Shown one piece after another: positions 12,766 through 58,980 of a stretch of 64,000 nt of DNA. This stretch comes from Mobula hypostoma (lineage: Eukaryota), in contig NC_086097.1 of assembly GCF_963921235.1 (NCBI RefSeq), forward strand, positions 106,146,001-106,210,000. The letters run 5' to 3'. The notes below the pieces were generated by a model. It searched no databases. It saw nothing but the letters and a program-made list of their open reading frames with translations, and had not been told where the DNA came from. Made by a program: the position numbers and the translations under genes. Each line of letters opens with the position of its first letter. Within the stretch, counting starts at the first letter, position 1.

Positions 12766-13261
12766 CTTGCAAGTGGTTTAGGTCATTGGCTACATTTTTG
12801 AATGCCATTTCCCACCAAATGTAACAATGAGTTATCATTGATTAATGAACATTATTCTAATCAATCACTTAACAATAGTCAGATTCATTCTAAGCATCCA
12901 CAGGTTCAAGTAATTCTCTGTGGTGACAGGTAGCAGAGAAACTGTATTTGCAAAGCTGTACAAAGAGAAAGCGCAGATCTTCAGGCCCTCAATACTCTGT
13001 CAACAGTAGGAGCAAGCTTCCTTTACCTCCTTCTCTCCTCAGAGGCAGAAAGCCTCCTAGGTAACACCTCTGCCACCAGTAAGAGTCGGCCCAGAATCAG
13101 AATCAGGTTTATGATCACTAACATATGTGAAATTTGTTGTTATGTTGCAGCAGTACAGTGCAATAAAAAAACTATAAGTTACAAAAGGAAATATAAAGCA
13201 AATGTTCAAAAACAGAGACAAATGGTGAGGTAGCGTTCATAGATGAGATTAGATTAGATTA

Positions 13262-15346: not shown

Positions 15347-15356
15347 CTCTCCCCCC
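15347..15356 (-). other. Polypurine tract
   Basis: Minus strand GGGGGGAGAG immediately before the TG of the 3' LTR. Confidence 0.85.
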
Positions 15357-15368
15357 AGCAAATAAAAG

Positions 15369-18300: not shown

Positions 18301-19813
18301 GATACACCAACACCTCCATCAGGTTCATATCCCCCACCGTCCTCTCCATGAACCACTGGAAGGTGGCTGGGGCCCCCGATATACCTTGGGGCATTCGTTT
18401 GAACTGAAAAAATCCCAGGAGGCAGATAAAGGCCGTCTTCTCTTTAGCGGCCTCACTCATCGGAATCTGGTAATACCCACTCCGCAAATCCAATACACTA
18501 AATCACTGCGCCCCACTTAAACAGGCCAATGCGTCTTCCACCCTCAGGACCACTGGTCGGGGACAGTGAGCCGGTTCAGGGTCCTATAGTCCACGCACAT
18601 GCATACCTTCCCATTTTACTTCCTAACCACTACCATGGGGGACGCATAGGGGCTCCGGGACTCCTTAATAATCCCTGCATCCTTCAACTGCGCACATCTT
18701 CCACATCTGCTGGGGCCAACTGCCGCGACCTTTCTCTAAATGGTGTGTCATTTGTCACATGGATAGTGTGACGAGTGCTCTTGGAACAACCCACATCAAA
18801 CTCGCCCTGAGAAAAGACATCCCCTAGTTTCAGCATCTCCTCCACCAGCCTGCTCTTATACTCCGGCGGTACAGGAGAGTCTTTAAAATTAAAGGCCTCC
18901 TCGGTCAGCCGCCCCCTGTTCTCCAATAGTTTTCCTCCAGTGGGCCTCAGGGGGGCACTAGGCATCACCATCTCCGGGAACAAGTGTGCAAGGGGCATCG
19001 CGCGCTTAAAGGTGATCTCCCTCTCCGTTGTGTTTCTTACAATCACCCCCATCCGGCGTGCTTGTACAACTGAGGGCCTCTGCAATTCAGATCTCACCAG
19101 CACCCCAGCCGGGAAATGGGACTCCCTTTCAAGGTCTTCCGGGGTGTCTACTAACAGGGCCTCACCCACCGGTACTCTGGGGAATCTGGGGGCCCCATCA
19201 CTAGTGCCACCTCCCCGGGCCGAGATCACTTTAGGCCTCGCCTGAGTACACCACACCGTCCCTCGCTTGAACTCAGGATCCAGCCCTGGGGGTCACCCAC
19301 TTCTTCGAACACCGCTCGAAATACTGGGTGTACCGAGAGGGTCTCCAGAAAGTTCTCCCCCGCCTTCTCCTTACAGGCTCCCAGGAGCCGTTGCACCAGA
19401 GGGGAGTTAGTCCCCACCAGCAGGGCAGTGCCAGTAGTTTCCACCGGGTCCGGACAAACCAACACCAACGTCTCAAGGGCTTCTGACACTCCCACATCGC
19501 CCTCCGAGAATTCCAATCTCACTGACAGGTACCCATTGTATGGGTAATCACCATCACTTATATCCCAAATCTCCAGTACATTAAGCGGGGTTACTGGCAA
19601 ATGCTTTAAATATTTGTTGTAGAATGACCAGTACAATAAAGTAACCTGCGATCCTGTGTCAAGGATGGTTCTTGCAAAGATTCCCTCTATCTGTAGAGAC
19701 ACGCTGGAACGGAGTCCAACCAGTCCATCCGGAATAAGGGCTTGTGCTTTTGGGGGTCCCATGGCTGATTTCTGGGAACATGTTCCTCCTGAGACTCCAG
19801 TCCGTTCCCTCAC
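15369..19813 (-). pseudogene. pol: Gypsy pol (PR-RT-RNase H-IN), multiply frameshifted
   Basis: ILDTGSQVT (PR); DLRSGYYQI, MPQG, YLDD (RT); RNYPTHKLEFLALKWAV, TDNNPL (RH); H..H..CSRC, SDQG..FES, PERFN (IN). Confidence 0.92.
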
Positions 19814-19879
19814 TAAGTCTCTCCTAAGTTTCCCGACACTGCTCCCTTCTTAGTGGCTGGGGGCTTTCCTTCTGCGGGG

Positions 19880-21151
19880 CATCTTGTCTCTCACAATCCC
19901 TCCGAAAGTGACCCGCTTCCCCACAGCTGTAGCACACCCCCGGCCACTCACATTCCCACCGGAAATGCCCCTCTTTCCCACAGTTACAGCACATGCTACC
20001 CGTCACCCCTCTCCTCCTGGGACGCCTCCCACTCCCAACCCACGGTGCGGGCCGTCCCCTGGAGGGGGTACTCTCCCTGTCCATCCCCTCAAGCGGGACC
20101 CCCCCAGGACCCCTTGGATTTCTCGGTTCTCAACCCAGCTACCGCCTCCTGAACCGCTGAGGACCGTCCCTAGTGGCCCACACCCCTTTTCCGGCCTAAC
20201 GCGCCCGAATGATGGAGGGGGCTCCTTTTATAGGACTGCCAGAGACTCCAAGCCACCTTGTCCTCCTCCAGGGAACCAGTAAATATCTGACTCATCCTCA
20301 ACCTCACCACTTCATCTGCCTTCACTACCCCTCGGCGCCAACAACGCAGTAAGCATTCTCTCCAGCCGAAAACTGTATTCTGAGAGCTTTTCCCTCTACC
20401 CTGCCCCATGTGGTGAAACTCCGCTAAAAGTTCCCAGGGATCTCCTGACATCCCAAACGCTCCCTCCAAGGCTTCCAGATACTCCGCCAGGGAAGCTGAG
20501 GGCCATTCTGCCCTCAGCTCGTGGACTACACTGGCTGCCCCTCCCCTCAAACTTTCCACCAATCGCTGACTCTTTTCCTCATCTGAACCTGGCCACGCCT
20601 CTAACAACGGGGACGTATTCTCAATCCATACCTCGTAGTCCTCCTCCCCTTCCAGGGTGGGCATGGCTCCTGAGAAAATTCTCAGCTTCGGGCAGGGCCC
20701 CTCGACCCTTCTCACCAGGGAGGTAATGGCGGCCGCTAACTCGGAGGTCTCACCTCCAGCTGGGGGACGGGGCCTGGCCAAGCCTTCCCACTCTAATCCT
20801 CCACCACTGGCTACTGGCACCTCCCCTGGGATCTCATCTAGCTCCTCCTTCGGCATCTCCTCACTTTCTTCCTCCGGGTGGGTGTGGAGACCCCATGGTC
20901 CCGTCTCCCCCTGTACGCTGACCATTGCTGGCAGTTCCAACGTCATGACATCAGCACTCGTACGAACCAACACCCAGCTAGATTCCACTTCTTTACCACA
21001 TCTTCTAGCTACCAGTTCTAGCTGCCCTATACCTTTAATCAAACTCAACCTTCACACTAGTACATCTCCTGAAATGCGGAAATCCACCGCACTTAACACA
21101 CACGCCTGATCACTGGTACTCACACCAACTTAAAATCTTATCTCAATCCAT
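19880..21151 (-). pseudogene. gag: Gypsy gag, PNMA-like capsid with two CCHC knuckles
   Basis: KLRIFSG..EEDYEVW..LVESLRGGA..YLEALEGAFG; knuckles CNCGKEGHFRWEC and CYSCGEAGHFRRDC; probable ATG at 21151, with stops and frameshifts. Confidence 0.85.
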
Positions 21152-21165
21152 CTTCGCACTACTTA

Positions 21166-23027
21166 ACAATAGACAATAGACAATAAGTGCAGGAGTAGGC
21201 CATTCGGCCCTTCGAGCCAGCACCACCATTCACTATGATCATGGCTGATCGATCCACAATCAGTATCCAGTTCCTGCCTTATCCCAATAAACTTTGATTC
21301 CACTATCTTTAAGAGCTCTATCCATCTCTTTCTTGAAAGCATCTAGAGACTTGGCCTCCACAGCCTTCTGGGACAGAGTATTCCATATATCCACCACTCT
21401 CTGGGTGAAAAAGCTTTTCCTCAACTCTGTTCTAAATGGCCTACCCCTTATTCTTAAACTGTGGCCTCTGGTTCTGGACTCACCCATCAGCGGGAACATG
21501 CTTCCTGCCTGCAGCATATCCAATCCCTTAATAATCTTATATGTTTCAATAAGATCCCCTCTCAGCCTTCTAAATTCCAGAGTATACAAGCCCAGTCGCT
21601 CCAATCTTTCGACATATGACAGTCCCGCCATTCTGGGAATTAACCTTGTGAACCTACGCTGCACTCCCTCAATAGCAAGAATGTCCTTCCTCAAATTTGG
21701 AGACCAAAACTGCACACAGTACTCCAGGTGTGGTCTCACCAGGGCCCTGTACAGCTGCAGAAGGACGTCTTTGCTCTTATACTCAAATTCCCTTGTTATG
21801 AAGGCCAGCATGCCATTAGCTTTCTTCGCTGCCTGCTGTACTTGCATGCTTGCTTTCAGTGACTAATGTACAAGAACACCTAGATCTCGTTGTACTTCCC
21901 CTTTTCCTAACTTGACTCCATTTAGATAATAATCTGCCTTCCCGTTCTTACCACCAAAGTGGATAACCTCACATTTGTCCACATTAAACTGCATCTGCCA
22001 TGCATTTGCCCACTCACCGAGCCTGTCCAAGTCACCCTGCATTCTCATAACATCCTCCTCACATTTCACACTGCCACCCAGCTTTGTGTCATCGGCAAAT
22101 TTGCTAATGTTACTTTTAATTCCCTCATCTAAATCATTAATATATATTGTAAACAGCTGCGGTCCCAGCACTGAACCCTGTGGTACCCCACTGGTCACCG
22201 CCTGCCATTCCGAAAGGGACCCGTTAATCGCTACTCTTTGCTTTCTGTCAGCCAGCCAATTTTCAGTCTATTTCAGTACTCTGCCCCCAATACCATGTGC
22301 CCTAATTTTGCCCACTAATCTCCTATGTGGGACTTTATCAAAGGCTTTCTGAAAGTCCAGGTACACTACATCCACTGGCTCTCCCTTGCCCATTTTTATA
22401 GTTACATCCTCAAAAAATTCCAGAAGATTAGTCAAGCACGATTTCCCCTTCGTAACTCCATGCTGACTTGGACCGATCCTGTTACTGCTATCCAGATGTG
22501 TCGTAATTTCATCTTTTATAATTGACTCCAGCATCTTTCCCACCACCGACGTCAGGCTAACCGGTCTATAATTCCCTGTTTTCTCTCTTCCTCCCTTCTT
22601 GAAGAGAGAGACAACATTAGCCACCCTCCAATCCACAGGAACTGATCCTGAATCTATAGAACATTGGAAAATGATTACCAATGTGTCCACGATTTCTAAA
22701 GCCACCTCCTTAAGTACCCTGGGATGCAGACCATCAGGTCCCAGGGACTTATCAGCCTTCGGACCCAACAGTCTATCCAACACCATTTCCTGCCTAATAT
22801 AAATTTCCTTTAGTTCATCCATTACCCTAGGTCCTTTGGCCACTATTATATCTGGGAGATTGTTTGTGTCTTCCCTAGTGAAGACAGATCCAAAGTACCT
22901 GTTCAACTCATCTGCCATTTCCTTGTTCCCCATAATAAATTCACCCGATTCTGTCTTCAAGGGCCCAATTTTGGTCTTTATTTTTTTCCTTTTCACATAC
23001 CTAAAGAAGCTTTTACTATCCTCTTTT
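21166..23027 (-). mobile_element. 5'-truncated CR1 LINE inserted in the Gypsy leader
   Basis: NYRPVSLTSVVGK, YLDFQKAFDKVPH, GVPQGSVLGP, KFADDT, RGHSLRIRG; (ATTGTCT)n tail at 21166-21185. Confidence 0.93.
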
Positions 23028-23067
23028 AAATTGGCGTGGCGACTTATACAGATTTACTGAAAATCCA

Positions 23068-23085
23068 ATCCCGGACGAGCCCCCA
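23068..23085 (-). other. Primer-binding site complementary to tRNA-Pro
   Basis: Minus strand TGGGGGCTCGTCCGGGAT, 4 nt downstream of the 5' LTR; identical to the canonical 18-nt Pro PBS. Confidence 0.92.
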
Positions 23086-23089
23086 CTAA

Positions 23090-23922
23090 TGTAATGCTCA
23101 GCTATATTGGCTCGTATTTATCTAGGGTAAACCCCGTCTGCCGCCACCTTGTCTCCCGGTTATGTCGGTTGCTGTACAACTGCCACCTAATTCAGCTTCA
23201 AACATCAATCATCAGCCAGCACACAATGTACGTTTTACCAATTACACCTTATAGATATTACTAGGTCTATGAGATTAATAGAAGTTCAATACAAAAAAAG
23301 GAATGGAAAAGGTGCCAGACTTATCAAAGTTCAATTTCTTCGTGCACACGTTGGAGCTCAGGGACCTCTTTGGGACCACTCGGACCCCGTCGACTCGCAG
23401 CTCAGGACCACCCAAAGTGATCAACCTGAGCTTTCCCGCAGGTCCGTCGTCCTCACGGTCTCTCCTCCGACTTCCCGCCCGGAGTGATCAACCTGAGCTT
23501 TCCCGTACATCCGTCGTCCTCACGGTCTCTCCTCCGACTCCCCGCCCGGAGTGATCAACCTGAGCTTTCCCGCAGGTCCGTCGCCCTCACGGTCTCTCCT
23601 CCGACTCCCCGCCCGGAGTGATCAACCCGAGCTTTCCCGCAAATCCGTCGTCCTCACGGTCTCCCCTCCGACTCCCCGCCATAAGCCCCTGGTTCCCAGC
23701 CATATGTGACAGCATATCACCCCAAGAAAGAATAACATGGACACCCATTGGCTCATAGTACATCTGCTATCTGTTATAACGCAAGCAAAGTGCAAGCTAG
23801 AGACTTTTCAGCATTTAACATAACATAGAAGCCATTTTAATTCATATACGCAGCAGCTTAAAATATTAACATAACAAAGAAGCCATTTTAATTTTAACAT
23901 AACAAAGAAGAAACCCCTTACA
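23090..23922 (-). repeat. 5' LTR (833 bp) with 4 x 67-bp units
   Basis: TGTAAT...CTTACA on the plus strand; array at 23416-23680. Confidence 0.92.
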
Positions 23923-27573: not shown

Positions 27574-27790
27574 GCAACACACATCAAAGTTGCTGGTGAA
27601 CGCAGCAGGCCAGGCAGCATCTCTAGGAAGAGGTACAGTCGACGTTTCAGGCCGAGATTCTGATGAAGGATCTTGGCCTGAAACGTCGACTGTACCTCTT
27701 CCTAGAGATGCTGCCTGGCCTGCTGCGTTCACCAGCAACTTTGATGTGTGTTGCTTGAATTTCCAGCATCTGCAGAATTCCTGTTGTTTA
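27574..27790. mobile_element. 217-bp fold-back PLE insertion containing a hammerhead core
   Basis: TSD CTTTAGATTTTAA (27561-27573 and 27791-27803); arms 27574-27658 and 27670-27754 are near-perfect inverted repeats; CTGATGA at 27660, GAAACGTC at 27680. Confidence 0.9.
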
Positions 27791-29463: not shown

Positions 29464-30203
29464 ACAGGAATTCTGCAGATGCTGGAAATTCAAGCAACAT
29501 ACATCAAAGTTGCTGGTGAACGCAGCAGGCCAAGCAGCATCTATAGGAAGAGGCGCAGTCGACGTTTCAGGCCGAGACCCTTCGTCAGGACTAACTGAAG
29601 GAAGAGTGAGTAAGGGATTTGAAAGCTGGAGGGGGAGGGGGAGATGCAAAATGATAGGAGAAGACAGGAGGGGGAGGGATAGACCCGAGAGCTGGACAGG
29701 TGATAGGCAAAAGGGGATACGAGAGGATCATGGGACAGGAGGTCCGGGAAGAAAGACAGGGGGGGAGGGTGACCCAGAGGATGGGCAAGAGGTATATTCA
29801 GAGGGACAGAGGGAGAAAAAGGAGAGTGAGAGAAAGAATGTGTGCATAAAAATGAGTAACAGATGGGGTACGAGGGGGAGGTGGGGCCTTAGCAGAAGTT
29901 AAAGAAGTCGATGTTCATGCCATCAGGTTGGAGGCTACCCAGACGGAATATAAGGTGTTGTTCCTCCAACCTGAGTGTGGCTTCATCTTTACAGTAGAGG
30001 AGGCCATGGATAGACATGTCAGAATGGGAATGGGATGTGGAATTAAAATGTGTGGCCACTGGGAGATCCTGCTTTCTCTGGCGGACAGAGCGTAGATGTT
30101 CAGCAAAGCCTGATGAAGGATCTTGGCCTGAAACGTCGACTGTACCTCTTCCTAGAGATGCTGCTTGGCCTGCTGCGTTCACCAGCAACTTTGATGTATG
30201 TTG
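29464..30203 (-). mobile_element. 5'-truncated PLE with inverted 5' arm, nested in the hAT transposase
   Basis: TSD CCACAATACATAATA (29449-29463 and 30204-30218); GIY-YIG C-terminus FAEHL..VATHF; inverted arm at 30109-30203. Confidence 0.9.
29556..29593 (-). ncRNA. Minimal hammerhead ribozyme motif
   Basis: Minus strand reads TAGTC-CTGACGA-AGGGTCTCGGCCT-GAAAC-GTC-GACTG. Confidence 0.72.
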
Positions 30204-32537
30204 CCACAATACATAATACACCACTTGGCCCTGCAACAGTGCCAAGGAAGGTAGAGTCACTGTCAGAGTTTGTGGATTGATTTGTCACTCTGTGATTATT
30301 TTTCACTACAGTTCGATGAATCCCTGGATGTAATGCAAACAGCTCAGCTTGCTGTAGTTTTCAGAATGGCTTTCCAGGATTTTACAACAAAGGAGGACTT
30401 CCTCACTCTTTTGCAATTAAAGGAGAGAACGAGAGGTGAGGATATTTACAATGAATTTAAAAAATACGTCCGTGAAAATGACATCTCCATTCATAAACTG
30501 GTGGCAATTACAACTGATGGGGCCCCAGCAATGCGCGGTGTGCGCGTTGGTTTTATAGCACTAAAAGTCAGTGCCTACTTCAGGTCAACTTATCTATGTG
30601 AAATTGCATGTTCACAGCTGAAAATTATTAAATCTAAGTACAGGAGCTGTCTTACTGACAGACACCTCACAGACTGTCTCAAACTGGCTGTCTGTAGTTA
30701 TGAGCCAAATTTCAGGGAACTAGCAGAAGTATTCAGCCCCAGTCATCACACTGAGTGGAACAGTTAATTTTTATTCATTTATTTTTCGTGTTGAAATAAA
30801 ATTAAATAATGAAACTTAGAATTAAAGGTGTGAAGTATTGTGATATTCTTAAAGAAAGACAGCTATGGCCTGTTTGATATGCTAGTTGCAGTGTTTCCTT
30901 GTTTGAATTAATTTGACAAATGTATTTTGTGTAATTCAAATACAATTAGCCCAAATAAAAGGCCTTAAATTGGAAGTAAAAACTGAGCTGTTTTTTCTCT
31001 AAACGATTTAGTAGGTAGATCTTGCCTTTCACTGAGGTCGAGGTAGGGGATCTTGAGCTTAAAAAGGTTGGTGACCACGACTTTAAATGAATCCTTGAAA
31101 CTTTTCCTTTCTATAGCAATGGCAAGTATTACTTGAAATATGATAAGATTGGGGATTTCTTAAAAACCAAATAAAATAAAAGAATGAAAACCAAAAAAAT
31201 TTGTAAAAATTCCTTAATTTGAGGATGTTACGAGGAAGCAGGTTCACCGGTTTGGTGACTAAGACATACACTAATTATGAATAAGCACTTGAACCATTTA
31301 TTTACAAATAGTAAAACATTCAATTAAGCATCTAAGTCACCCTAAGTAAAATTCAACAAACAGACACTTAGCTATGAGTGCATAGGGACTCCCCAATATT
31401 TGCAGCATAATTTCCCAATAGTTGTTTAACACTGGATACGACCTCAGCCTGAAATGGGCCCTGGGGATGAAGGAAAAGATGCCGAGCCTCCCGCACATAC
31501 TATTCCTATACCCCTGAGATGCCTGAAATCAGACACTGGGGCCCTGGTACACAGAGCAACCAACAGGAAGGAGCTGCTGCTTCCTTCAAATGAGCCACTT
31601 GATGACCAGCACAGTAGAAGTGGCTTTTGACCGACAACTAACCCCTACGTGACAGAGAAAATAGAAGATTTCAAATTACATGTTACTCTGCAATATGAAG
31701 AACCAACAAACAGCAAAATTTCATTCAAAATGACACAGGTGGTGTATGACAACATTTTGTGGTCAGCTCACAAACCTACTAGTTCTATCTCTTTGAATTA
31801 AATACAGATTTAAAATGCTCCTAAACATGGATACAGCTTGCAAAGTGAGTTGTTCCTTGTCCCCTTCACAACAAAAAGTGAAGTAAACGTATGCTTTAAG
31901 TAGGAGGATTTGCCAATACATGCGTATTACAAGTTCAAATTGGCTATTGACGATTACTACCACACAGATTTATCGTCATTGAACAAACAAATGAACCCAT
32001 TGTCAATCACCTCTTCTCCACAGTGATTGCTTTTATTGTTGGTGAAACTCATTTGCTGGATGCTGTACTGCCATTTAATCTCAATGTGTTCATCACTTAT
32101 GTTTTATGTAGCTTGCAAACTTCTTCTTCAGTGAAAGCAGAGAGATTGTTGAAATCCTCCTGCAAAGTACCTGATAAAAGCATGAAGGTCCTTTACATTT
32201 CCTCAAAACAATACTGGAATTAAAGAGAAACAAAAGGCCAGCTGCTTGAGAAAAACACTCACCAAACAGCCCTGCTACAGCACACTACACATTATTCAAC
32301 TATCGTGCTTCACGTTTTAGTAATTTTTTTCTGTTATATGTTAACTAAAAGCGTGTTTGTTCAATAACAAATCTAGCTGAGAGGTTTATAAATCAGTGAG
32401 ATTATTAGATAATGGAAAGATTTAAAGATCTTTCCATTTATATTTCTTTTTTGTAGGAAGTCTCCAATATTTGCATTGAATATTATCATCTCCATAGACA
32501 TGCTTCATTTTTTGCAGAATATCTTTCACAACTTGCA

Positions 32538-33798: not shown

Positions 33799-34247
33799 GA
33801 TGACGTTTCAGGCTGAGACCCTTCATCGGGACGCAGTGTTTCAGAACTATAAGTTTGGTTGACAATAGGACAAAGATGCAGATTGTATTACAGAAAGCAA
33901 AGTGGAGGCTTGGGTGTTTAAAGGATTGGGAATTGAAACAGTTTGGTGTATTCCAAGGATAGAAGAGTGTTAACAACTGGTGTGTAAGAGGGAAAAGGTA
34001 ATACAGAATGATGTATATTACAGGTCAGGGGTCGGGGATGAGTTCATTACAGGTTGGGGAAGATTATGGGGCAGAAGTCAAAAGGGGTGATTATATCACA
34101 GGAGATAAAAAGGAAAGGGTGGGCAGGATATGGTTAAGACTGTGTAGTTTATTGCACTAAAATGTCACAGTTTTGGTTGTTTCATTCAGGTCAAGTCAGA
34201 TAACGCATGTCCCACAATAGAAGGGTAAAACAATAGAAGTAGGTGAG

Positions 34248-37200
34248 CAACACACACAAAACATGCTGGTGAATGAAGCAGACCAGGCAGCATCTCTAGG
34301 AAGAGGTACAGTCCACGTTTTGGGCCGAGACCCTTTGTCAGGACTAACTGAAAGAAGAGATAGTAAGAGATTTGAAAGTGGGAGGGGGAGGGGAGATCCA
34401 AAATGATAGGAGAAGACAGGAGGGGGAGGGATGGAGCTAAGAGCTGGAAAGTTGATTGCGCCCGCCATTGATCTCGCTGGCTCCAGCAACCCAGGGCATA
34501 TTCAAAACCCGGACTCCAGCACTATCAATGTGGGCTCCAATGACCATGGACACCTTCAAAGTGATTGCGCAACCTCCAACTGTGACTCTAGCCTTGAACT
34601 CCAGGCCAAGTCTTCACGTGCTGCTACTGTGACTCCCGTCTCCCCTTCCCCCACCACCACTCTGCAATCCCGTCTCCCTCAGATCCCACAGTCAACTCCT
34701 GGGCCCTCAGAGGCTCCATCTTCCTCTCACGCAACTCTCCCCTCCCCCCTCTGATCCTAACTTTCAAGACTCCAGCCTTGAACTCCAGGCTGGGTCTTCA
34801 CATGCTGCTGTTGTGACTCCTGACTCCCCTTCCCCCACCACCACTCTGCAATCCTGTCTCCCTCACATCCCACCATCTACTCCTGGGCCCTCTGCGGCTC
34901 CTTCTTCTTCTCACCCCAACCCTCCTCTCTCCACTGACACCACCAGCCTCCCCCCTCTGATCGCAGCTCTCATCCGTGCTGGGTCTTTACGATCCCCTCC
35001 AACCTTCAACTCTCTGAGGCAGAGCGCTCTGTCCTCAGTGAGGGCCTTACTCTCTCCCCCTTCACCCACACCTCAGCAAGTTCCGCGTTCGCCATGTCGC
35101 TGAACTCTTCTTCCACCGGCTGCGTCTTCAAGCCTACTTCTTCGGCAAGGACTCTTCCACCTCCACCGATGACCCCTTCTCCCGTCTTCAACCCTCCTCT
35201 TCTTCATGGACACCCACCTCTAGTCTTCTGCCTGCTCTGGATCTCTTTATTGCTAACTGTCAACGGGACATCAACCGTCTCAACTTCTCCACACCTTGTT
35301 CCCATTGCAACCTCACTCCTTCCGAACGCTCTGCTCTCCACTCCCTCCGCACAAATCCTAACACTATAAAACCCGCCAATAAGGGGGGGTGCTGTTGTTG
35401 TCTGGCGTACTGACCTGTACCTTGCCGAAGCACAATGACAACTCGCGGAAACCTCCTCTTATTTCCCCTCAATCATAACCCCACTAAGGAACACCAGGCC
35501 ATTGTCTCCCACACCATCACCACTTTTATCAGCTCAGGGGATCTCCCATTCACTGCTACCAACCTTATCGTTCCCACACCCCGCACTTCCCGTTTCTACC
35601 TCCTACCCAAGATCCACAAACCTGCCTGTCCAGATAGACCCGTTGTCTCAGCTTGCTCTGCCCCACCGAACTCATTTCTGCATACACTGTTTTATCCCCC
35701 CCTTGTTCAATCCCTTGTCTGTGACACTTCTCATGCTCTGAATTTTTTCAATGATTTTAAGTTACCTGGCCCCCACCGCTTTATTTTCACCATGGATGTC
35801 CAGTCCCTATATACCTCCATCCCCCACCAGGAAATGTCTCAAAGCTCCCCACTTCTTTTTGGATTCCAGACCTAACCAGTTCCCCTCTACTACCACTCTG
35901 CTCCGTCTGGCGGAGTTAGTCCTTACTCTTAATAATTTCTCCTTTGGCTCCTCCCACTTCATCCAAACTAAAGGTGTAGCCATGGGCACCCGTATGGGTC
36001 CCAGCTATGCGTGCCTTTTTGATGGTTTTGTGGAACAATCCATATTTCAAGCCTATACTGGGATCTGTCCCCCACTTTTCCTTCACTACATCGACAACTG
36101 CATTGGTGCTGCTTCCTGCACGCATGCTGAGCTCGTTGACTTCATTAACTTTGCCTCCAACTTTCACCCTGCCCTCAAGTTTAGCTGGTCCATTTCCAAC
36201 ACCTCCCTCCCCTTTCTTCATCTTTCTGTCTCTATCTCTGGAGACAGCTTATCTACTGATGTCTACTATAAGCCTACAGACTCTCACAGCTACCTGGGCT
36301 ATTCCTCTTCCCACCCTGTCTCTTGCAAAAATGCCACCCCCTTCTCGCAATTCCTCTGTCTCCGCCGCATCTGCTCGCAGGGTGAGGCTTTTCATTCCAG
36401 GACAGAGGAGATGTCTTCTTTTTTTGAAGAAAGGGGCCTCCCTTCCTCCACCATCAACTCTGTTCTCAAACGCATCTCTCCCATTTCACGCACATCTGCT
36501 CTCACCCCATTCTCCCGCCACCCCACTAGGAATAGGGTTCCCCTTGTCCTCACCTACCACCCCACCAGCCTCCGGGTCCAACATATAATTCTCCGTAACT
36601 TCTGCCACCTCCAACGGGATCCCACCACTAGGCACATCTTTCCCTCTCCCCCACCCCCGCCCCCCGCTTTCTGCAGGGATCACTCCCTACGCAACTCCCT
36701 TGTTCATTCGTCCCCCCTCATTCCTTTCCACCGATCTCCCTCCCGGCACTTATCCTTGTAAGCAGAACAAGTGCTACACATGCCCTTACACTTCCTCCCT
36801 CACCACCATTCAGAGCCCCAGACAGTCCTTCCAGGTGAGGCTACACTTCACCTGTGAGTCGGCTGGGGTGATATACTGCGTCCGGTGCTCCCGATGTGGC
36901 CTTCTATACATTGGCGAGACCCAACGCAGACTGGGAGACTGTTTCGCTGAACACCTACGCTCTGTCCGCCAGAGAAAGCAGGATCTCCCAGTGGCCACAC
37001 ATTTTAATTCCACGTCCCATTCCCATTCTGATATGTCTATCCACGGCCTCCTCTACTGCCAAGATGAAGCCACACTCAGGTTGGAGGAACAACACCTTAT
37101 AATCCGTCTGGGTAGCCTCCAATCTGATGGCATGAACATTGACTTCTCTAACTTCTGTTAATGCCCCCACCTCCCCTTCGTACCCCATCCGTTATTTATT

Positions 37201-37601
37201 TATTTATTATGATTATATATTTAAAAAATTTCTCTCTCTTTTTTCTCCTTCTGTCGCTCTCACTATACTCCTTGCCCATCCTCTGGGCTTCCCTTCCCCT
37301 TTCTTTCTCCCTAGGCCTCCCGTCCCATGATCTTCTCCCTTCTCCAGCCTCATATCCCTTTTGCCAATCAACTTTCCAGCTCTTAGCTCCATCCCTTCCC
37401 TTCCTGTATTCTCTTATCATTTCAGATCTCCCCCACCCCCTCCCACTTTCAAATCTCTTACTATCTCTTCTTTCAGTTAGTCCTGACGAAGGGTCTCGAC
37501 CCGAAACGTCGACTGTAACTCTTCCTATAGATGCTGCCTGGCCTGCTGCGTTCACCAGCATTTTTTGTGTGTGTAATTTCCAGCATCTGCAGATTTCCTC
37601 G
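34248..37601 (+). mobile_element. Long Neptune-type PLE with inverted 5' arm (34248-34457)
   Basis: TSD AGTAGGTGAG (34238-34247 and 37602-37611); RT (LPKIHK, MDVQSLYTSIP, YIDN), Cys-rich linker CKQNKCYTC and GIY-YIG; frameshifted. Confidence 0.92.
37478..37515 (+). ncRNA. Minimal hammerhead ribozyme motif (best-paired copy)
   Basis: TAGTC-CTGACGA-A-GGGT-CTCG-ACCC-GAAAC-GTC-GACTG; predicted cut after C37510. Confidence 0.78.
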
Positions 37602-37899
37602 AGTAGGTGAGACTGACTGGCTTGTCACCATAACTTCATTCAATAGCCTATGACACCAAGGATTTGAAAAAACTGAAGTGAGTGGACACAAGAATAAAAG
37701 CTTACTAGTGCCCAGATTCAAATCTACCACACAGCAAATGGCTATGGTTGTGTGAAGTCGATAACTATCGACTTAAGATCGGCTGCAGGAGTTGCTCAGG
37801 TGAGCAACCAAGAACTATTTTCAATCCTTCAGCAATGACCAACCCTCAACCCCAAAGCTGAAAGTGGTTCCACCGACTGAAATTTGTCGTGTTAAACCA

Positions 37900-46214: not shown

Positions 46215-46578
46215 ACACCTGTCCCAATACCTTCCCCTTCCTCTCCATCTAGTTCTTCCTGGTGAGGCAGAGGTTCATATGAAACTCTTCTACTCTTGAC
46301 CATTGCTTCTGTCCTATTGATGTGGCCTTTCTACATTGCTGAGACTAAGTGCAGACTAGGTAGCTGACTTGCTGACCACCTGTACTCCATCCGTCATGGT
46401 CACCGGGAACTCCTGGTTGCAAGCCATTTTAATTCCCTTCCCATTTCCAGACTAACATTCTGTTATTATCCTTTTCCAGTATCAGGATGATGCAAACATG
46501 AACTAGAAGAACAGCACCTCATATTCTGTCTGAGTAGTCTACAGCCTAATAGTATGAACGTTCTTCAACTTCAGGTAA
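46215..46578 (+). mobile_element. Old PLE GIY-YIG fragment
   Basis: Homologous to 36780-37150 ('ctacattgctgagac', 'gccattttaattcc', 'gaacagcacctcatattctgtct'). Confidence 0.7.
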
Positions 46579-48984: not shown

Positions 48985-49576
48985 TATGTTCACCCTAAAC
49001 TTATGCTCTCTAGTTCTAGTATCACTAACTTCAGGGATAATAAAAGCTTGCATGTAATTTTGCACCCCGCTATAAGATCTCCCCTCATTCTCCTACGCTC
49101 CAGGGAATAATCTCCTGACCTTTTCAACCTTTCCTTATAAATCAGGTCCTCAAGTTCCAACAATAGGCTTGTAATTCTCTCTGTACTCTTTCAATCTTAT
49201 TTATATTTTTCCTGTAGGTAGCTGACCAGAACTGCAAACATTATTTCAAATTCAGCCTCACCAACTATTATACAACTTCAACATAACATCTCAACTCATT
49301 GCTCTGATTTATGACGGCCAATGTGCCAAAAGCTCTTTTGATGACTCATCTACTTGTGACTGTACTTACAAGTAATTATGGATCTGTATTCCCAGATCTC
49401 TTTGTTCTACCACACATCTCAGTGCCCTACCATTTATTGTGCAAGTCCTACCTTTCCCTGGTCTGTCCTGCCAAAAGTCAACATCTTACACTTGTTTGCA
49501 ATTTTTTTATATAGCTGCAGCATGACTTCCTTACTCTCACACTCAACATTGTTATCAATGAAAGCAATATGGCTTC
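48985..49576 (-). mobile_element. Degraded CR1 fragments; the last one continues at 60400 onward
   Basis: 'gatctcccctcattctccta', 'ccagaactgcaaaca'; the flank 'atatggcttc' rejoins 'tttaccaccctatccac' after the LTR element. Confidence 0.65.
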
Positions 49577-51246
49577 TGTTACGGACCAACAACAATAGAT
49601 GTAGAATGGAGTCGGGGAATTATTGCAAAACAATTAAATTTATTAACATTTACACAGAAATATAGAAAATTAAACAAATGACTAATTTAAACAGAAGTTA
49701 ACGGTGTTATGCGTCTATGGTTCCCAAACAGTCAAACTTAGAAACAATTCTTAACTTAGTCTTACTCAAGCACAGTCTGCGAGTGGCAGTTTAGAAAGTC
49801 CAGGTGATTCATGAAATATGTGAGAGGAGAGACTTGTATATTCACAATGCAACGAAGAGACGATCTTGGAGATTCACAATGCGGCGGAGAGGCCATCTTG
49901 AAGAAACAGTTACCGGAGTTTGCAGCCGTGGCGTATCTTTTTTGAAGAGTCCACGAAGAGCGAGATTTTATAGAGTAACTGATATGGAATGTCCCTTTCA
50001 CCAAAGTGGTCACCACACAATACCCGAGACCATGCAGGGGTTAACCAAAAGTGTGTGCCACAATCAATGTATGGGTTATACGAAATGTCAGTCACATTCG
50101 AAATGCAGAGAGTGCTGCCGGCTAACCAATCCTTTGGGTTTGTTCAAAGCCTGCAATCTTCACTCTCACTCTCCCTTCCCGTCGATTCCTTAACGACTCC
50201 TTACCGAGTGTCTCCCTAATGAGCGACTGCCTACTAAACTGAACTCTTTGCCCTTAATATGAGTTATTAAGAGATCACATTCCTGTAAAATTAAACTCCA
50301 GTTCAGCAACCTTCTCTTTTTGTTTTTCAGTTTACTCAAAAATACCAATGGGTTATGATCGATGTAAACCACGAGTGGTTTCAGAGTTGTGCCAACATAC
50401 ACATCAAAATGCTGTGAAGCCAAAATAAGGGATAATAATTCCTTTTCTGTGGTTGAAGAATTTCTCTGGTGTCCATTGAATTTCTTGGAAAAGTAAGCCA
50501 CAGGATGGTCAACATCATCATAATTATCCCTTTGGAGTAACACTGCTCCTGCAGCCGCATCACTGGCATCCACATCTAGGGAAAGTGGCTTTTCAAAGTC
50601 AGGTGACCTGAGCACAGGTTGGTGACATAAGATAGCTTTCAACTTACCAAATGTCTCCTGACAAGGCTCTTTCCAAACAAACTTTTCACCTTTTCTCAGG
50701 AGGTTAGTTAATGGGAGTGCAATCTCAGCACAGTTCTTACAGAACTTGCGATAGTACACTACCATTCCCAAGAATCTTCTGAGAGCCTTTTTACCTGTTG
50801 GAGTGGGAACCTCCGAAATTGCTTGAACTTTTGCTTGTACAGGAGCCAACCTGCCTTGACCTACAACGTAACCAAGATAGGTCACAGTGGCATAGCCAAA
50901 TTCACTTTTAGCTATCATGTGAGACTACTGTAGTTCTTTTTGTAACATCTGGAAATAAATCCCTAAATTTCATAATTAACTGCTTCATTTGCTGCCGCTG
51001 CTGTGGCTTCAAATGAGCCAATTTCTCATCAATATTTTCTAAAATTGTCGAATTTGTTCATCTGGTGGAAATAATGTTCGGTTTAAAATAGGTCTCAGCT
51101 GGATCAGCTACCAAGTTCCCAGGGAGGTCAGACTCATTGTTACTGACAACAACAGTCACAGCGGCAGATTGTTTTTCATAATATGGTTTTAGCACATTTA
51201 TATGCCAAAGCTGCGTTGGCATTTGTCGATCTGTTGTTTTTACCAC

Positions 51247-52444
51247 TGTTACGTACACACAACCTTGGGGAAAGTACCGGTTACATGCACACAACACTGC
51301 AAAAGTATCAGCAGCAATAGAACACACCTGGAGTCTGTTTTTGATGTTTAAATCCATTATCTTTATTAGTAACTACTACATTTAGTAACTTAACCAGGTG
51401 ATCAAAAGTTAGCAGGGTGATGCATATATAGGTGTATAGATAAAGATCCCAAACTTATTCGAGCTCAGGTGGTAAGAGTTACAGTCTTATGATGGTATGT
51501 AAGAAAGTTCAGTTCAATCCTCAGGTTAACTAATGCGAGATATTTGTAATCCAAAGGCGAACGTTGTGAGAAGGCAATTACGTCGATATTCCACAGGTTC
51601 CATGACAGCAATACAAAATAACAATAGCAGTAGGTTTTATCTCTGAAGTTGTTCCACTCCACACACAAAGTATCACCAACAGTAGCTTATCACAAAGGGG
51701 ACCATCTTCCAGGGAACCACCACCCGGGCAAGGGTAGACACATCAGTAGCTTCCACAAGGTTACCCCAAACACACAACATGATAGCCACTTATCCAGTTC
51801 CACGACATACAAAATAACTCCAACAGTGATTTGCCACAGGGGTGCCTTTCTCAGTGAACTACCACACCCAGACAAAGGGTAAACACACACGTGGTATTCA
51901 CAAAGGTTTTCCCCTCACCAGAGAACCCACTCCTGTGGATTAACTATGTGACAATCGCACGCTCGTATCTGAATGGAATCAAACTCACCCTTATGGGCTA
52001 CTTGGAGAGAGTCCAAACAGCGATCTCTTTATCACTAGGTTTCTTCTGTTTCAAACCTTTCTCTCCCCCCTCTTTCTCTGCAATCTTCTTCTAGTCGATT
52101 ATCAATACTCTGGATCAATCTCAACTCACCTCTTTTGGGTTACTGAAAGCTTAAACCAGCGACCTCACTCACTGGTGTCTTTAATTGATTGAAACCATCT
52201 CGACTCTGAGCATGTGTCTCTCTATGTGTGTCTGTGAGAGGATCATCTGACCTTGCTTATTCAAAACAAGCCGCGAGAAACCATAAACATTCATTGTCCA
52301 TCAAACAACTCCACCTCTCTCACCGTAGTAACCAAGCAATTTTGTAGTCAGTAGAAATCCAACAGTGTTCAAAAGTCAGTCTCATTCTCTCAGCATTTTA
52401 AAGTGACAGTCCACAGAAAAAATGAACCCTCGGGGTATACAACA
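51247..52444. mobile_element. Solo LTR of another family inserted in the integrase C-terminus
   Basis: TGTT..AACA ends, TSD CCAC, and the integrase reads through (DYVV|VKTTD..HINVLKPY) when it is removed. Confidence 0.85.
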
Positions 52445-54189
52445 CCACATAATCCACATTATTAACTTTAGATATAATCTTGTAAGGTCCATGAAATGTA
52501 GCTTGCAAAGAGTTCATTCGCACAGGGAAAACCAACACCTCATCTCCTGGCTTGAATGACCTTATTCTAGCTTCCTGGTCATACCAAGTTTTCATTCTTT
52601 CCTGAGCAGATTTCAGATTTTCCCTTGCTAAGACGCAATCTTTTTGCAATCTTTCCTTAAATTTTAAGATATAATCCAGCAAGTTAGTATGTAGTTCTTT
52701 GTTAACCTACTGTTATTATAACAATGCCAAAGGTCCTCGGACCCGGTGCCCAAACACAAGTTCAAAGGGACTAAAGCCTAGGGACTCCTGCACTGACTCC
52801 CTTACTGCAAACAAAAGCAAATGAACTCCCTCATCCCAATCCTTCACATTTTCAACACAGAATGTCCTAATCAAGGTTTGAGGGTGGAATGGAACCTTTC
52901 TAAGGACCCCTGTGATTCTGGATGGTACACAGATGATGTAATTTGTTTGGCTCCCAGGTTATAAACTACTTGCTGGAATAATCCTGACATAAAATTACTT
53001 CCTTGATCAGACTGAATTTCTTTAGGCAAAGCAAATAAGGTAAAAAACTTTATGAGAGGCTTCGGCACAGTTTTAGCTTTTATATTCCTGAGAGGTATTG
53101 CTTCTGGAAACCTAGATGTGTACACATTATGGTCAGCAAATATTGATGGCCAGCTTTAGTCTTCGGCAATGGGTCAACACAATCCACAAATTATTTAGAA
53201 AAGGGCTTGCCAAATGCAGGAATAGGTTGCAGTGGGGCCACTGGGGTGACTTAATTAAGTTTACCCACAACCTGACAAGTGTGACAAGTTCGGCAAAATG
53301 TTGCCACATCTTTCTTCAACCCAGGCCAGAAGAAGTGTTTAGAAATCTTTGTTCTACCACACATCTCAGTGCCCTACCATTTATTGTGCAAGTCCTACCT
53401 TTCCCTGGTCTGTCCTGCCAAAAGTCAACATCTTACACTTGTTTGCAATTTTTTTATATAGCTGCAGCATGACTTCCTTACTCTCACACTCAACATTGTT
53501 ATCAATGAAAGCAATATGGCTTCTGTTACGGACCAACAACAATAGATGTAGAATGGAGTCGGGGAATTATTGCAAAACAATTAAATTTATTAACATTTAC
53601 ACAGAAATATAGAAAATTAAACAAATGACTAATTTAAACAGAAGTTAACGGTGTTATGCGTCTATGGTTCCCAAACAGTCAAACTTAGAAACAATTCTTA
53701 ACTTAGTCTTACTCAAGCACAGTCTGCGAGTGGCAGTTTAGAAAGTCCAGGTGATTCATGAAATATGTGAGAGGAGAGACTTGTATATTCACAATGCAAC
53801 GAAGAGACGATCTTGGAGATTCACAATGCGGCGGAGAGGCCATCTTGAAGAAACAGTTACCGGAGTTTGCAGCCGTGGAGTATCTTTTTTGAAGAGTCCA
53901 CGAAGAGCGAGATTTTATAGAGTAACTGATATGGAATGTCCCTTTCACCAAAGTGGTCACCACACAATACCCGAGACCATGCAGGGGTTAACCAAAAGTG
54001 TGTGCCACAATCAATGTATGGGTTATACGAAATGTCAGTCACATTCGAAATGCAGAGAGTGCTGCCGGCTAACCAATCCTTTGGGTTTGTTCAAAGCCTG
54101 CAATCTTCACTCTCACTCTCCCTTCCCGTCGATTCCTTAACGACTCCTTACCGAGTGTCTCCCTAATGAGCGACTGCCTACTAAACTGA

Positions 54190-57100
54190 ACTCTTTGCCC
54201 TTAATATGAGTTATTAAGAGATCACATTCCTGTAAAATTAAACTCCAGTTCAGCAACCTTCTCTTTTTGTTTTTCAGTTTACTCAAAAATACCAATGGGT
54301 TATGATCGATGTAAACCACGAGTGGTTTCAGAGTTGTGCCAACATACACATCAAAATGCTGTGAAGCCAAAATAAGGGATAATAATTCCTTTTCTGTGGT
54401 TGAAGAATTTCTCTGGTGTCCATTGAATTTCTTGGAAAAGTAAGCCACAGGATGGTCAACATCATCATAATTATCCCTTTGGAGTAACACTGCTCCTGCA
54501 GCCGCATCACTGGCATCCACATCTAGGGAAAGTGGCTTTTCAAAGTCAGGTGACCTGAGCACAGGTTGGTGACATAAGATAGCTTTCAACTTACCAAATG
54601 TCTCCTGACAAGGCTCTTTCCAAACAAACTTTTCACCTTTTCTCAGGAGGTTAGTTAATGGGAGTGCAATCTCAGCACAGTTCTTACAGAACTTGCGATA
54701 GTACACTACCATTCCCAAGAATCTTCTGAGAGCCTTTTTACCTGTTGGAGTGGGAACCTCCGAAATTGCTTGAACTTTTGCTTGTACAGGAGCCAACCTG
54801 CCTTGACCTACAACGTAACCAAGATAGGTCACAGTGGCATAGCCAAATTCACTTTTAGCTATCATGTGAGACTACTGTAGTTCTTTTTGTAACATCTGGA
54901 AATAAATCCCTAAATTTCATAATTAACTGCTTCATTTGCTGCCGCTGCTGTGGCTTCAAATGAGCCAATTTCTCATCAATATTTTCTAAAATTGTCGAAT
55001 TTGTTCATCTGGTGGAAATAATGTTCGGTTTAAAATAGGTCTCAGCTGGATCAGCTACCAAGTTCCCAGGGAGGTCAGACTCATTGTTACTGACAACAAC
55101 AGTCACAGCGGCAGATTGTTTTTCATAATATGGTTTTAGCACATTTATATGCCAAAGCTGCGTTGGCATTTGTCGATCTGTTGTTTTTACCACTGTTACG
55201 TACACACAACCTTGGGGAAAGTACCGGTTACATGCACACAACACTGCAAAAGTATCAGCAGCAATAGAACACACCTGGAGTCTGTTTTTGATGTTTAAAT
55301 CCATTATCTTTATTAGTAACTACTACATTTAGTAACTTAACCAGGTGATCAAAAGTTAGCAGGGTGATGCATATATAGGTGTATAGATAAAGATCCCAAA
55401 CTTATTCGAGCTCAGGTGGTAAGAGTTACAGTCTTATGATGGTATGTAAGAAAGTTCAGTTCAATCCTCAGGTTAACTAATGCGAGATATTTGTAATCCA
55501 AAGGCGAACGTTGTGAGAAGGCAATTACGTCGATATTCCACAGGTTCCATGACAGCAATACAAAATAACAATAGCAGTAGGTTTTATCTCTGAAGTTGTT
55601 CCACTCCACACACAAAGTATCACCAACAGTAGCTTATCACAAAGGGGACCATCTTCCAGGGAACCACCACCCGGGCAAGGGTAGACACATCAGTAGCTTC
55701 CACAAGGTTACCCCAAACACACAACATGATAGCCACTTATCCAGTTCCACGACATACAAAATAACTCCAACAGTGATTTGCCACAGGGGTGCCTTTCTCA
55801 GTGAACTACCACACCCAGACAAAGGGTAAACACACACGTGGTATTCACAAAGGTTTTCCCCTCACCAGAGAACCCACTCCTGTGGATTAACTATGTGACA
55901 ATCGCACGCTCGTATCTGAATGGAATCAAACTCACCCTTATGGGCTACTTGGAGAGAGTCCAAACAGCGATCTCTTTATCACTAGGTTTCTTCTGTTTCA
56001 AACCTTTCTCTCCCCCCTCTTTCTCTGCAATCTTCTTCTAGTCGATTATCAATACTCTGGATCAATCTCAACTCACCTCTTTTGGGTTACTGAAAGCTTA
56101 AACCAGCGACCTCACTCACTGGTGTCTTTAATTGATTGAAACCATCTCGACTCTGAGCATGTGTCTCTCTATGTGTGTCTGTGAGAGGATCATCTGACCT
56201 TGCTTATTCAAAACAAGCCGCGAGAAACCATAAACATTCATTGTCCATCAAACAACTCCACCTCTCTCACCGTAGTAACCAAGCAATTTTGTAGTCAGTA
56301 GAAATCCAACAGTGTTCAAAAGTCAGTCTCATTCTCTCAGCATTTTAAAGTGACAGTCCACAGAAAAAATGAACCCTCGGGGTATACAACACCACATAAT
56401 CCACATTATTAACTTTAGATATAATCTTGTAAGGTCCATGAAATGTAGCTTGCAAAGAGTTCATTCGCACAGGGAAAACCAACACCTCATCTCCTGGCTT
56501 GAATGACCTTATTCTAGCTTCCTGGTCATACCAAGTTTTCATTCTTTCCTGAGCAGATTTCAGATTTTCCCTTGCTAAGACGCAATCTTTTTGCAATCTT
56601 TCCTTAAATTTTAAGATATAATCCAGCAAGTTAGTATGTAGTTCTTTGTTAACCTACTGTTATTATAACAATGCCAAAGGTCCTCGGACCCGGTGCCCAA
56701 ACACAAGTTCAAAGGGACTAAAGCCTAGGGACTCCTGCACTGACTCCCTTACTGCAAACAAAAGCAAATGAACTCCCTCATCCCAATCCTTCACATTTTC
56801 AACACAGAATGTCCTAATCAAGGTTTGAGGGTGGAATGGAACCTTTCTAAGGACCCCTGTGATTCTGGATGGTACACAGATGATGTAATTTGTTTGGCTC
56901 CCAGGTTATAAACTACTTGCTGGAATAATCCTGACATAAAATTACTTCCTTGATCAGACTGAATTTCTTTAGGCAAAGCAAATAAGGTAAAAAACTTTAT
57001 GAGAGGCTTCGGCACAGTTTTAGCTTTTATATTCCTGAGAGGTATTGCTTCTGGAAACCTAGATGTGTACACATTATGGTCAGCAAATATTGATGGCCAG

Positions 57101-58980
57101 CTTTAGTCTTCGGCAATGGGTCAACACAATCCACAAATTATTTAGAAAAGGGCTTGCCAAATGCAGGAATAGGTTGCAGTGGGGCCACTGGGGTGACTTA
57201 ATTAAGTTTACCCACAACCTGACAAGTGTGACAAGTTCGGCAAAATGTTGCCACATCTTTCTTCAACCCAGGCCAGAAGAAGTGTTTAGAAATCTTGTTC
57301 ACAGTTTTATTCACACCAAGATGGCCACCCAAGGGCACACTACGAGCCAAAGTTAAAATCTCATTCCTATAGACTTTAGGAACTACTACCTGGTGAACAA
57401 CTGACCAATTCTCACTTGCCAGAATCTCAGGTGGTCTCCACTTCCTCATTAACACTCCACTCTTGAAATAAAACCCTACTGACACTTTATCAATCTCCTC
57501 ACCTGAGAGAGCTTTTTCTCTTAAAGCTTCAATCTCAGGGTCTCTGCTCTGTTCTGCTATAAACTCCTTCCTAGACAGAGAAAAATCTCTATGGTCAGAT
57601 CTACTACAAGAATCTTGGTCAAACAAGGAAGGTAGGAAAGATACTGACAAATCATCAAGATCTGAGTCCTGATTTGAGCTATCATGGGTAGCAGAACCAT
57701 GCTATACCAAACCATCTGCATTGGCAGACTTTTTTGCCATAGCTTGGGTTACTGCACAGGAGGGATAAATGTTAGAATCTATCTTTGGATCATCAGTGAT
57801 TGGCTTAGTTGAAAGCTGCACTGCAGGAACAACTTTTCCACCTGCTAGGTCATTCCCTAACAACAAGGAAACACCATCCACTGGTAATCTGGGTCGTAGT
57901 CCTATTTTAACAGGTCCTGAGACTAACCTTAACTTCAAGATTATCTTGTGCAGAGGTACAGAAACAACATTACACCCAATACCTTGAACAAGATTTACCT
58001 CACCAATGGCAGTCTTATCACTTAACTTTAGAACACTGTCTAACATAAGTGACTGAGAAGCCCCGGTATCCTTAAGAATCTTTACTAGTACTGGGGTAGA
58101 CCCTTCATTTACTGAAACAACTCCCTCTGACATAAAAGGATCGAAGCCTTTCCTAACTCGGTCAGACCTCTCAGACCCTGACAGAACTTCATCAGACTGT
58201 TCAGAACCCTGTGGGTTTATGGGTGTTTCAAAGTGTTGGACACAGGCGTCTGGAACTGCCTCCTTTTCCTTCTTCTTCAGACGGAAACAGTTAGCCATAA
58301 CAGGACCAGATTTCCCACAATAGTGACAAATAGGACCAAAATGCTTTTCCTTTACTTACTTCCCTTCATCCCTACCTTTTTCACTTATCCCCGATTTAAT
58401 TTCTAGTTTACTCTGACTATCCGTGCTACTATTTTTGGAAGGTTTTACTTGGGGTAATTTTAACTCTGTGGGTTAGGGCAAACTCATCTGCTAATTTAGC
58501 AGACTCTCACAACGTGGTAGCCTTTATGTCATTAGGGACCTTTATATCATTAGGATTTATCAACCTCAGCCTCATTAAATGGAGGAACCAATTTAATTTC
58601 CTGACTGGCAATAAATGGTACTACCTGTTTCCTAGAACCAGAAGCCTGATTCTCAAGCCTCATCCTCTGCATCTGTAACTCATACTGCCTCTGTTTCTCT
58701 CTGTCCTCAGCCTCTAATTTAAGTTTCTTGAACGCTATCTGTTCCAGCTGTAACTGGATCACCTCTTTACTTACAGGAAACTTCTGTAACACCCTCTCAT
58801 CAAATTCCCCTTTAGTTATATGGTACTCAGCTATTTTCCTTCAGAAACTCAGGCTTTGTCATAGTCGGCTTTATCTCAGTAAGCTCTTGCTCTTTAGCAA
58901 TTTCCAGCACCTCATCCTTATTGGCTTTTGCTAATGCCTCAGGAGTTGGCAATGCTAGAAATTCCCCAATATACATTGCT
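54190..58980 (-). pseudogene. pol: Gmr1-type gag-pol remnants
   Basis: KLVPPFNEAEVD (gag); KDTGASQSL (PR); GGHLGVNKT..CRTCHTC and SDQGSNF (IN); YLGYVVG, DVDASD, EKELL, DHNPL (end of RT and RH); the RT core is deleted. Confidence 0.9.
55194..56391. mobile_element. Duplicate of the solo LTR
   Basis: Copy of 51247-52444 at +3947. Confidence 0.85.

Follow-up and report, generated by a model that had tools for sequence, protein, structure and literature searches.

The window analysed here, the whole 64-kb stretch of Mobula hypostoma DNA, carries at 37479-37514 on the forward strand a complete minimal type I hammerhead motif. We read it, with a probability of about 0.7, as belonging to the pseudo-LTR of an abundant Neptune-type Penelope-like element (PLE) and as what would be a latent ribozyme, here probably the dead passenger of a broken insertion; the reading extends to the behaviour of the element's RNA template as suggested by the ends of its copies. 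All parts of the motif are located by direct reading of the bases at 37478, the place given in the original prediction:

37479-37482, forward strand: 5' strand of helix I, preceded by T37478
37483-37489, forward strand: core CTGACGA, followed by a bulged A at 37490
37491-37494 and 37499-37502, forward strand: the two strands of helix II (4 bp)
37503-37506, forward strand: GAAA of the core
37510, forward strand: C17, with the predicted cut between C37510 and G37511
37511-37514, forward strand: 3' strand of helix I (4 bp)
37511-37601, forward strand: predicted stem-loop downstream of the cut, holding the short end and the approximately 34-nt tail, the two likely reverse transcription start sites by comparison with the available text of PMC11167929

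The core CUGANGA...GAAA...UH and helices I and II are all present. An unpaired base (A37490) lies between positions 9 and 10.1, which is also the majority state in families A, B and C (labels of this analysis), and the palindrome ACGT at 15.2/16.2 replaces helix III, as had been proposed. This copy has the G10.1-C11.1 pair, the majority state in families B and C. The assignment to the PLE minimal hammerheads is borne out by the complete set of core nucleotides, the bulge before helix II, the palindromic remnant of helix III, the location in the pseudo-LTR of an element encoding reverse transcriptase (RT) and a GIY-YIG endonuclease, and the persistence of the motif across three families whose flanks differ.

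Conservation was assessed in 197 copies chosen by a downstream anchor, of which 137 have a recognisable core and 76 also keep the upstream flank (40 of family A, 10 of B and 26 of C). In ungapped comparison the majority letters of the three families agree at 32 of the 36 motif positions, every catalytic one included, compared with 0 of 8 positions in the upstream flank and 3 of 15 downstream, and the core is therefore more conserved than its surroundings across the three families, in line with the original prediction. The differences between families fall in loop 2, N7 and 11.1, and individual copies decay at core CpG sites as at other positions. Because these close relatives show no two-sided compensatory change in the helices, the hammerhead structure rests on motif identity; nor is folding energy by itself evidence for the motif, since it folds no better than shuffled sequences (z of -0.1 to -1.8). 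U11.1 is found in 28 of the 40 family-A copies, and 27 of 33 complete family-A motifs carry G.U at 10.1/11.1, the form of the youngest subfamily; this pair is described as a highly conserved G-C in the available text of PMC4209133. The U.G/U-A exchange once noted in stem II does not represent covariation: U-A at 10.4/11.4 occurs in a single one of 40 family-A copies, that at 37478, and in one of the first 100 genome matches, and is a private substitution.

Eight places in the window match the motif with three or fewer mismatches, compared with none in 100 shuffles, and these are the same eight listed in the original prediction. Seven copies with full context trace back to five insertions, all distinguished by a target-site duplication of their own, and four of the five are arranged head-to-head:

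2596-2885: head-to-head insertion with a 15-bp target duplication; the minus arm has a complete hammerhead (2655-2692) and the short end
2792-2885, forward strand: plus arm of the same insertion, beginning just past the cut and tailed
3102-5272, reverse strand: separate 5'-truncated PLE insertion with a complete hammerhead (3198-3235) and a 10-bp target duplication
27574-27790: head-to-head insertion with a 13-bp target duplication; the plus arm runs from the core (27660) and lacks helix I
29464-30204, both strands: head-to-head insertion with a 14-bp target duplication; the minus arm has a GIY-YIG end and a complete hammerhead (29556-29593) of the youngest subfamily, and the plus arm starts at the core (30110)
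33802-33832, reverse strand: 31-bp scrap of the motif, standing alone between unrelated flanks
34248-34458, reverse strand: inverted tail-less pseudo-LTR arm with a decayed hammerhead (34309-34346), part of the same insertion as the next
34460-37601, forward strand: 5'-truncated, frameshifted Neptune-type PLE, 88% identical to the intact element L181, with remains of the RT, Cys linker and GIY-YIG; in order, the ORF remains (GIY-YIG to 37161), the 3' UTR, the hammerhead and the tailed end
62860-62945, reverse strand: decayed copy of the older related family C, bounds approximate

The insertion carrying the 37478 motif thus spans 34248-37601 and is flanked by a 10-bp duplication (34238-34247 and 37602-37611). 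Six cores had been called intact, and four of them are complete (2663 and 3206 on the reverse strand, 29564 on the reverse strand and 37483 on the forward strand), but the forward-strand copies at 27660 and 30110 are not: both are truncated at the start of the core and lack the 5' strand of helix I, both have an A.C mismatch in helix II, and the predicted pairing of both helices is 0.00-0.01. The two copies described as decayed, near 33800 and 34309, are so, the former being the 33802-33832 scrap and the latter (34317, reverse strand) having G8, G12 and C17 changed. The decayed family-C copy near 62,900 on the reverse strand was absent from that list.

We note that the arms at 27660-27684 and 30110-30134, which belong to separate insertions 2.4 kb apart and both start at the core, share two substitutions in helix II and its loop, reflecting either a shared source RNA or local conversion. 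A search of the window against Rfam gives no hammerhead match. Long hairpins arise from head-to-head PLE insertions and are scored as microRNA precursors, though under the Rfam thresholds, and the sub-threshold matches on the inverted insertion at 27.6 kb (27619-27709) are hairpin artefacts of this kind rather than a microRNA. Among the other features of the window, an old GIY-YIG remnant of 68% identity lies on the opposite strand at 46319-46578, and no hammerhead is recognised beside it. A gypsy-like LTR element, labelled by the look of its frames, occupies 13261-23920; an array of approximately 67-bp units (13573-15171) is expanded in its left repeat and short in its right repeat, and a LINE fragment lies within it at about 21.2-23.1 kb. 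A second element of gypsy-like LTR type, whose 666-bp repeats lie at 49574, 53521 and 59098, contains a 3.95-kb stretch tandemly repeated at 49399-57300 with 99.95% identity, through either a very recent duplication or an assembly artefact.

The host element is best seen in L181 (contig C18, 40.007-40.011 Mb), a full-length copy with an intact 1,016-aa ORF between two pseudo-LTRs, whose identical hammerheads are 3,514 nt apart. Its ORF matches RVT_1 (E 3.8e-5) and GIY-YIG (E 0.004), both below the Pfam cut-offs, and frames in the window also match RT and GIY-YIG in Pfam, with GIY-YIG above the cut-off in 3439-3915. The RT and C-terminal GIY-YIG in a single ORF are the Neptune-type arrangement, the hammerhead lies in the pseudo-LTRs that flank this ORF, and the first ATG is about 140 nt past the cut. 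The endonuclease is preceded by a CX4CX2C linker, which fits the CX2-5CxxC definition in the available text of PMC8557442. By comparison with that text, the order of RT, linker and GIY-YIG would fit Neptune or Nematis and not Poseidon; the linker and the presumed vertebrate host are the features that would favour Neptune over Nematis. The 64-kb stretch itself is found in runs of eight organisms, with word shares of 0.36-0.79. An inverted pseudo-LTR with a one-sided tail is also present, in that 15 of 16 head-to-head pairs join one tailed and one tail-less arm. The Neptune clade as described in the accessible text of Craig et al. 2021 (PMC8557442) has the same C-terminal GIY-YIG, linker and DKG motif, as well as partial tandems, an inverted 5' pseudo-LTR and a one-sided tail of 30-40 bp.

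The family is very abundant. A 28-nt core has 56,264 exact occurrences in 3.48 Gb, compared with none for the reversed control, and 46,275 of these also carry the 5' strand of helix I; the strand split (28,067/28,197) is uninformative on strand bias within introns. A 1.65-Mb sample, made up of the window with its flanks plus blocks taken from 14 further contigs, holds 74 family-A copies that extend to the cut; 33 of them are complete, about 20 per Mb. The proposal of a very high genome-wide density therefore stands, but the six copies per 64 kb from which it was drawn (94 per Mb) overstate the intact copies about fivefold; exact cores occur genome-wide at approximately 1 per 62 kb, about a quarter of the density in the window, which has four. 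The available texts give about 4,000 hammerheads in coelacanth and 9,000 in Xenopus (PMC4209133), and 126,247 type I motifs in axolotl (PMC7229834); with 13-16 exact copies per Mb this genome is among the densest hammerhead loads in that literature.

The 3' ends of the copies are of two kinds. Of 82 copies, 41 end at +60 to +72 relative to the cut and 40 at about +100 to +104, although 12 of the latter read as +87, where the reference sequence ended. The cut had been placed 90-100 nt from the element end, and it is 91 nt away in the 37478 copy, but family-wide there are two ends. These correspond to the known PLE tail, as in the available texts of PMC8557442 and PMC11167929. Reverse transcription would begin downstream of the cut, at a distance of approximately 65 or 100 nt, and then cross the motif; we infer from this that in every core-bearing copy the motif was uncut or re-ligated when crossed. 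Genome-wide, the cut gives 1,172 candidate 5' ends and the following base 1,003, a slight excess at best, and in the sample 2 of 43 ends lie there (P 0.32); a 5'-end peak at the cut is thus rejected. Some cut RNA may have been copied, as 7 of 15 inspected loci truly begin at or beside the cut, three of them sharing one junction. These three (L259, L260 and L261) are independent head-to-head insertions in which an arm ending at -31 is followed by one extra base and then by the other arm starting at the predicted cut (+1), a structure that could represent one uncut and one cut RNA.

The 5' ends accumulate elsewhere. About a fifth of core-bearing copies start 28-35 nt upstream of the cut, with a peak at -31/-32 on the 5' strand of helix I, and of the 43 ends sampled from -62 to +12, 14 fall within -33 to -28 (P 4e-6 against a uniform distribution). 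Extending the match upstream leaves 52,506 copies at -30, 50,400 at -31, 46,275 at -32, 43,970 at -33 and 39,833 at -35, which are stepwise losses of 4.0% at -31, 8.2% at -32 and 5.0% at -33 (where two letters are allowed), compared with 1.2% per position over three positions downstream. The excess corresponds to about 11,900 copies, an upper figure since these losses take in subfamily variants and other families. Of 30 inspected loci chosen for a G at -32, 27 start at -31; ten of these are inverted arms and eight have a target duplication within 2 nt, and contigs of two related organisms have joints at the same places. The copied RNA was probably mostly uncut and often started at -31/-32, because the ends pile up there and form no clear peak at the cut.

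Our preferred explanation is that a minority of templates had a discrete RNA 5' end at -31/-32, either a start site or a protected end. A cap-derived G signature is weak or absent at these ends: the base before the end is G in 1,461 of 4,125 cases at -31 (35%, where about 31% is expected) and, among purine-flanked ends at -32, in 1,230 of 2,305 (53%, where about 44% is expected). Most templates did not start at helix I, since of 12 direct 5' pseudo-LTRs just two do so (at -29/-30), and six extend 82 to over 653 nt further upstream. In two insertions, L055 and L057, a piece starting at -32 is joined inside the ORF of a piece starting at -29/-30, a structure that a template jump off an RNA end would produce. 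A start on helix I would differ from Drosophila virilis Penelope, where helix I marks the end of a 75-nt intron and transcription starts 46 nt ahead of that intron (available texts of PMC2377424 and PMC4209133).

The favoured scenario for the element is as follows. The lone motif would be trapped in a rod by pairing between its core and the ACGT region. In approximately a fifth of templates the RNA would have its 5' end at -31/-32, likeliest a transcription start or a protected RNA end, where reverse transcription would run off. In the full-length unit, a cut in the 5' motif would take off a short leader, about 140 nt ahead of the ORF start, and one in the 3' motif would take off the reverse transcription start site, so that strong ribozyme activity would be self-defeating. 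A bolder version, which we hold tentatively and at somewhat under even odds, has the RNA start on the 5' strand of helix I, with reverse transcription that initiates in the 5' pseudo-LTR running off after 100-135 nt and scattering approximately 10,000 mini insertions, and with a rare cut acting as a leader-removal switch and not as part of template production; the hammerhead would then be the 5'-terminal structure of the transcript, and the mini insertions would consist of hammerhead and tail.

Alternatively, the pile-up could be an RT stop or a joining hot spot at the base of the rod, through fold-back of RNA and cDNA or through microhomology in helix I. We consider this doubtful, though it has several points of agreement: the predicted rod has its base exactly where the peak lies, 5' pseudo-LTRs and solo copies end there in similar proportions, and several junctions have 1-4 nt of microhomology. 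The cDNA hairpin is, however, weak (-2.6 to -5.4 kcal/mol), a block by RNA structure would be expected near +5, at the entry to the helix, and the pieces of L055 and L057 both start at -29 to -32, as a template jump predicts.

Splicing is an improbable source of the pile-up. A pyrimidine tract followed by AG lies upstream, as in the splice acceptor of Drosophila Penelope, so that the ends might mark spliced RNA; the tract and YAG lie at helix I in all three families, and according to the available text of PMC4209133 the D. virilis intron runs up to the 5' end of helix I. Against this, 27 loci starting at -31 have no common upstream exon, 2 of the 54 core-bearing copies whose upstream side is foreign join element sequence directly, neither at a GT donor, and the joints listed from contigs of related organisms include no GT..AG joint. 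Spliced-circle joints were also looked for among those 54 copies, with none found, and the splice-acceptor reading is rejected for the data examined. The discrete RNA end is thus favoured because the cDNA hairpin is weak, splicing has left no trace and two insertions contain two pieces that start there.

Circular templates bear on the same ends. In the model of Cervera and De la Pena, tandem precursors are cut to unit-length RNAs and ligated into circles, which would be the main template, with the motif as the re-ligated junction. This accounts for templates that are continuous across the cut and for copies longer than one unit, which exist here, and one rare variant is shared by both pseudo-LTRs of L181, occurring in these two repeats alone, where 65 copies have the common form. 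Linear read-through of tandems explains the long copies equally well, however, and a circle has no 5' end, which leaves the pile-up at -31/-32 unexplained; we regard circles as an unlikely main template. Of 37 arm pairs, 22 share a four-site type, compared with 19% expected. At another locus, L188, the segment from about +4 to +63 is repeated in a short tandem array that lacks the hammerhead core.

Predicted folding bears on whether such a motif would cleave. A lone motif is predicted to form the rod, pairing the core with the ACGT region, at -12.6 kcal/mol compared with -8.4 kcal/mol for the hammerhead helices alone, and two copies are predicted to form an extended duplex (-35.3) rather than a double hammerhead (-15.7); these predictions ignore tertiary contacts and protein. 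The statement that PLE hammerheads cleave as dimers is too strong: in the available text of Cervera and De la Pena 2014 (PMC4209133) monomers have no activity and dimers low activity only. In that of Frangieh et al. 2024 (PMC11167929) cleavage occurs only with protein, insertion did not need cleavage and no RNA-seq reads end at the cut. We regard the motif as a likely latent ribozyme, whose cutting would require a dimer or the element's protein.

The possibility had also been raised that such motifs cleave host pre-mRNAs; in its strong form, they would cut efficiently wherever they are transcribed, sense intronic copies included. At least 46,275 copies carry the core with the 5' strand of helix I, family sequence occurs in contigs of runs guessed to be RNA (contigs that show no ends, strand or level, with one such run, X17, probably DNA), and the palindromic helix III could let any two copies pair in trans. 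But the monomer is predicted to be an inactive rod and two copies an extended duplex, and among 100 consecutive exact copies a same-strand partner lies within 1 kb of two and within 5 kb of six, while 14 have a head-to-head neighbour within 1 kb. The same-strand pair in the window (2663/3206), 543 nt apart, consists of two insertions, and the inverted arm between them is predicted to sequester one motif; folding does not predict a natural dimer from this pair. The G.U at 10.1/11.1 in 27 of 33 motifs departs from the conserved G-C of PMC4209133 (available text), and core CpG positions decay like others. Efficient cutting in vivo is thus very unlikely, and cleavage of host pre-mRNAs looks rare at most, because the lone motif is a predicted rod, same-strand partners are few and the published activity is weak. 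It would matter if true and has little support.

The closest counterparts are the minimal hammerheads of PMC4209133, which in its available text are likewise type I motifs in pseudo-LTRs with a short helix I, a bulge before helix II and palindromic 15.2/16.2, mostly in solo truncated copies with some close opposite-strand pairs and several families per genome. They differ in that there are at least 46,000 exact copies here compared with 4,000 (coelacanth) and 9,000 (Xenopus), in the helix II of only 4 bp with G.U at 10.1/11.1 in the youngest subfamily, and in the pile-up of 5' ends at helix I, of which that text makes no mention; cartilaginous fishes are not among the hosts it names. Poseidon PAc of Anolis carolinensis (available text of PMC11167929) also has a hammerhead upstream of two internal reverse transcription start sites that give an optional tail, and uncut RNA as its dominant template, but it has no Cys linker and begins its ORF within helix II, whereas here the first ATG is about 140 nt past the cut and the sense strand of the ends is rich in GT. 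Non-LTR retrozymes, which derive from PLE pseudo-LTRs, also give very many type I hammerheads per genome (available texts of PMC7229834 and bioRxiv 10.64898/2026.07.22.740005, the latter a 2026 survey that took in one chondrichthyan). They are tandem arrays of 170-400 nt units, in contrast to the dispersed, target-duplicated ends of an autonomous element seen here; assignment to them is rejected in view of the lack of tandem arrays, the 2 in 100 same-strand neighbours within 1 kb and the separate insertions in the window.

In the literature covered, to which subscription papers, Repbase/Dfam, the supplements of PMC4209133 and the 2026 preprint, and figures do not belong, we found no published report of hammerheads in sharks or rays. 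Nor did we find one of 5' ends at the hammerhead, for which coverage likewise lies outside subscription papers, Repbase/Dfam, Lunse et al., supplements and figures, and the 5'-end pile-up is the sole part for which no precedent was found within this coverage. The motif type has been known since 2014 (PMC4209133, available text). Thousands of head-to-head PLE hairpins could give double-stranded RNA. Tens of thousands of near-identical insertions in this genome record where reverse transcription started and stopped, and the ends of the templates, mostly uncut and often at the 5' edge of the ribozyme, bear directly on the choice among circle, tandem-precursor and 5'-switch models.
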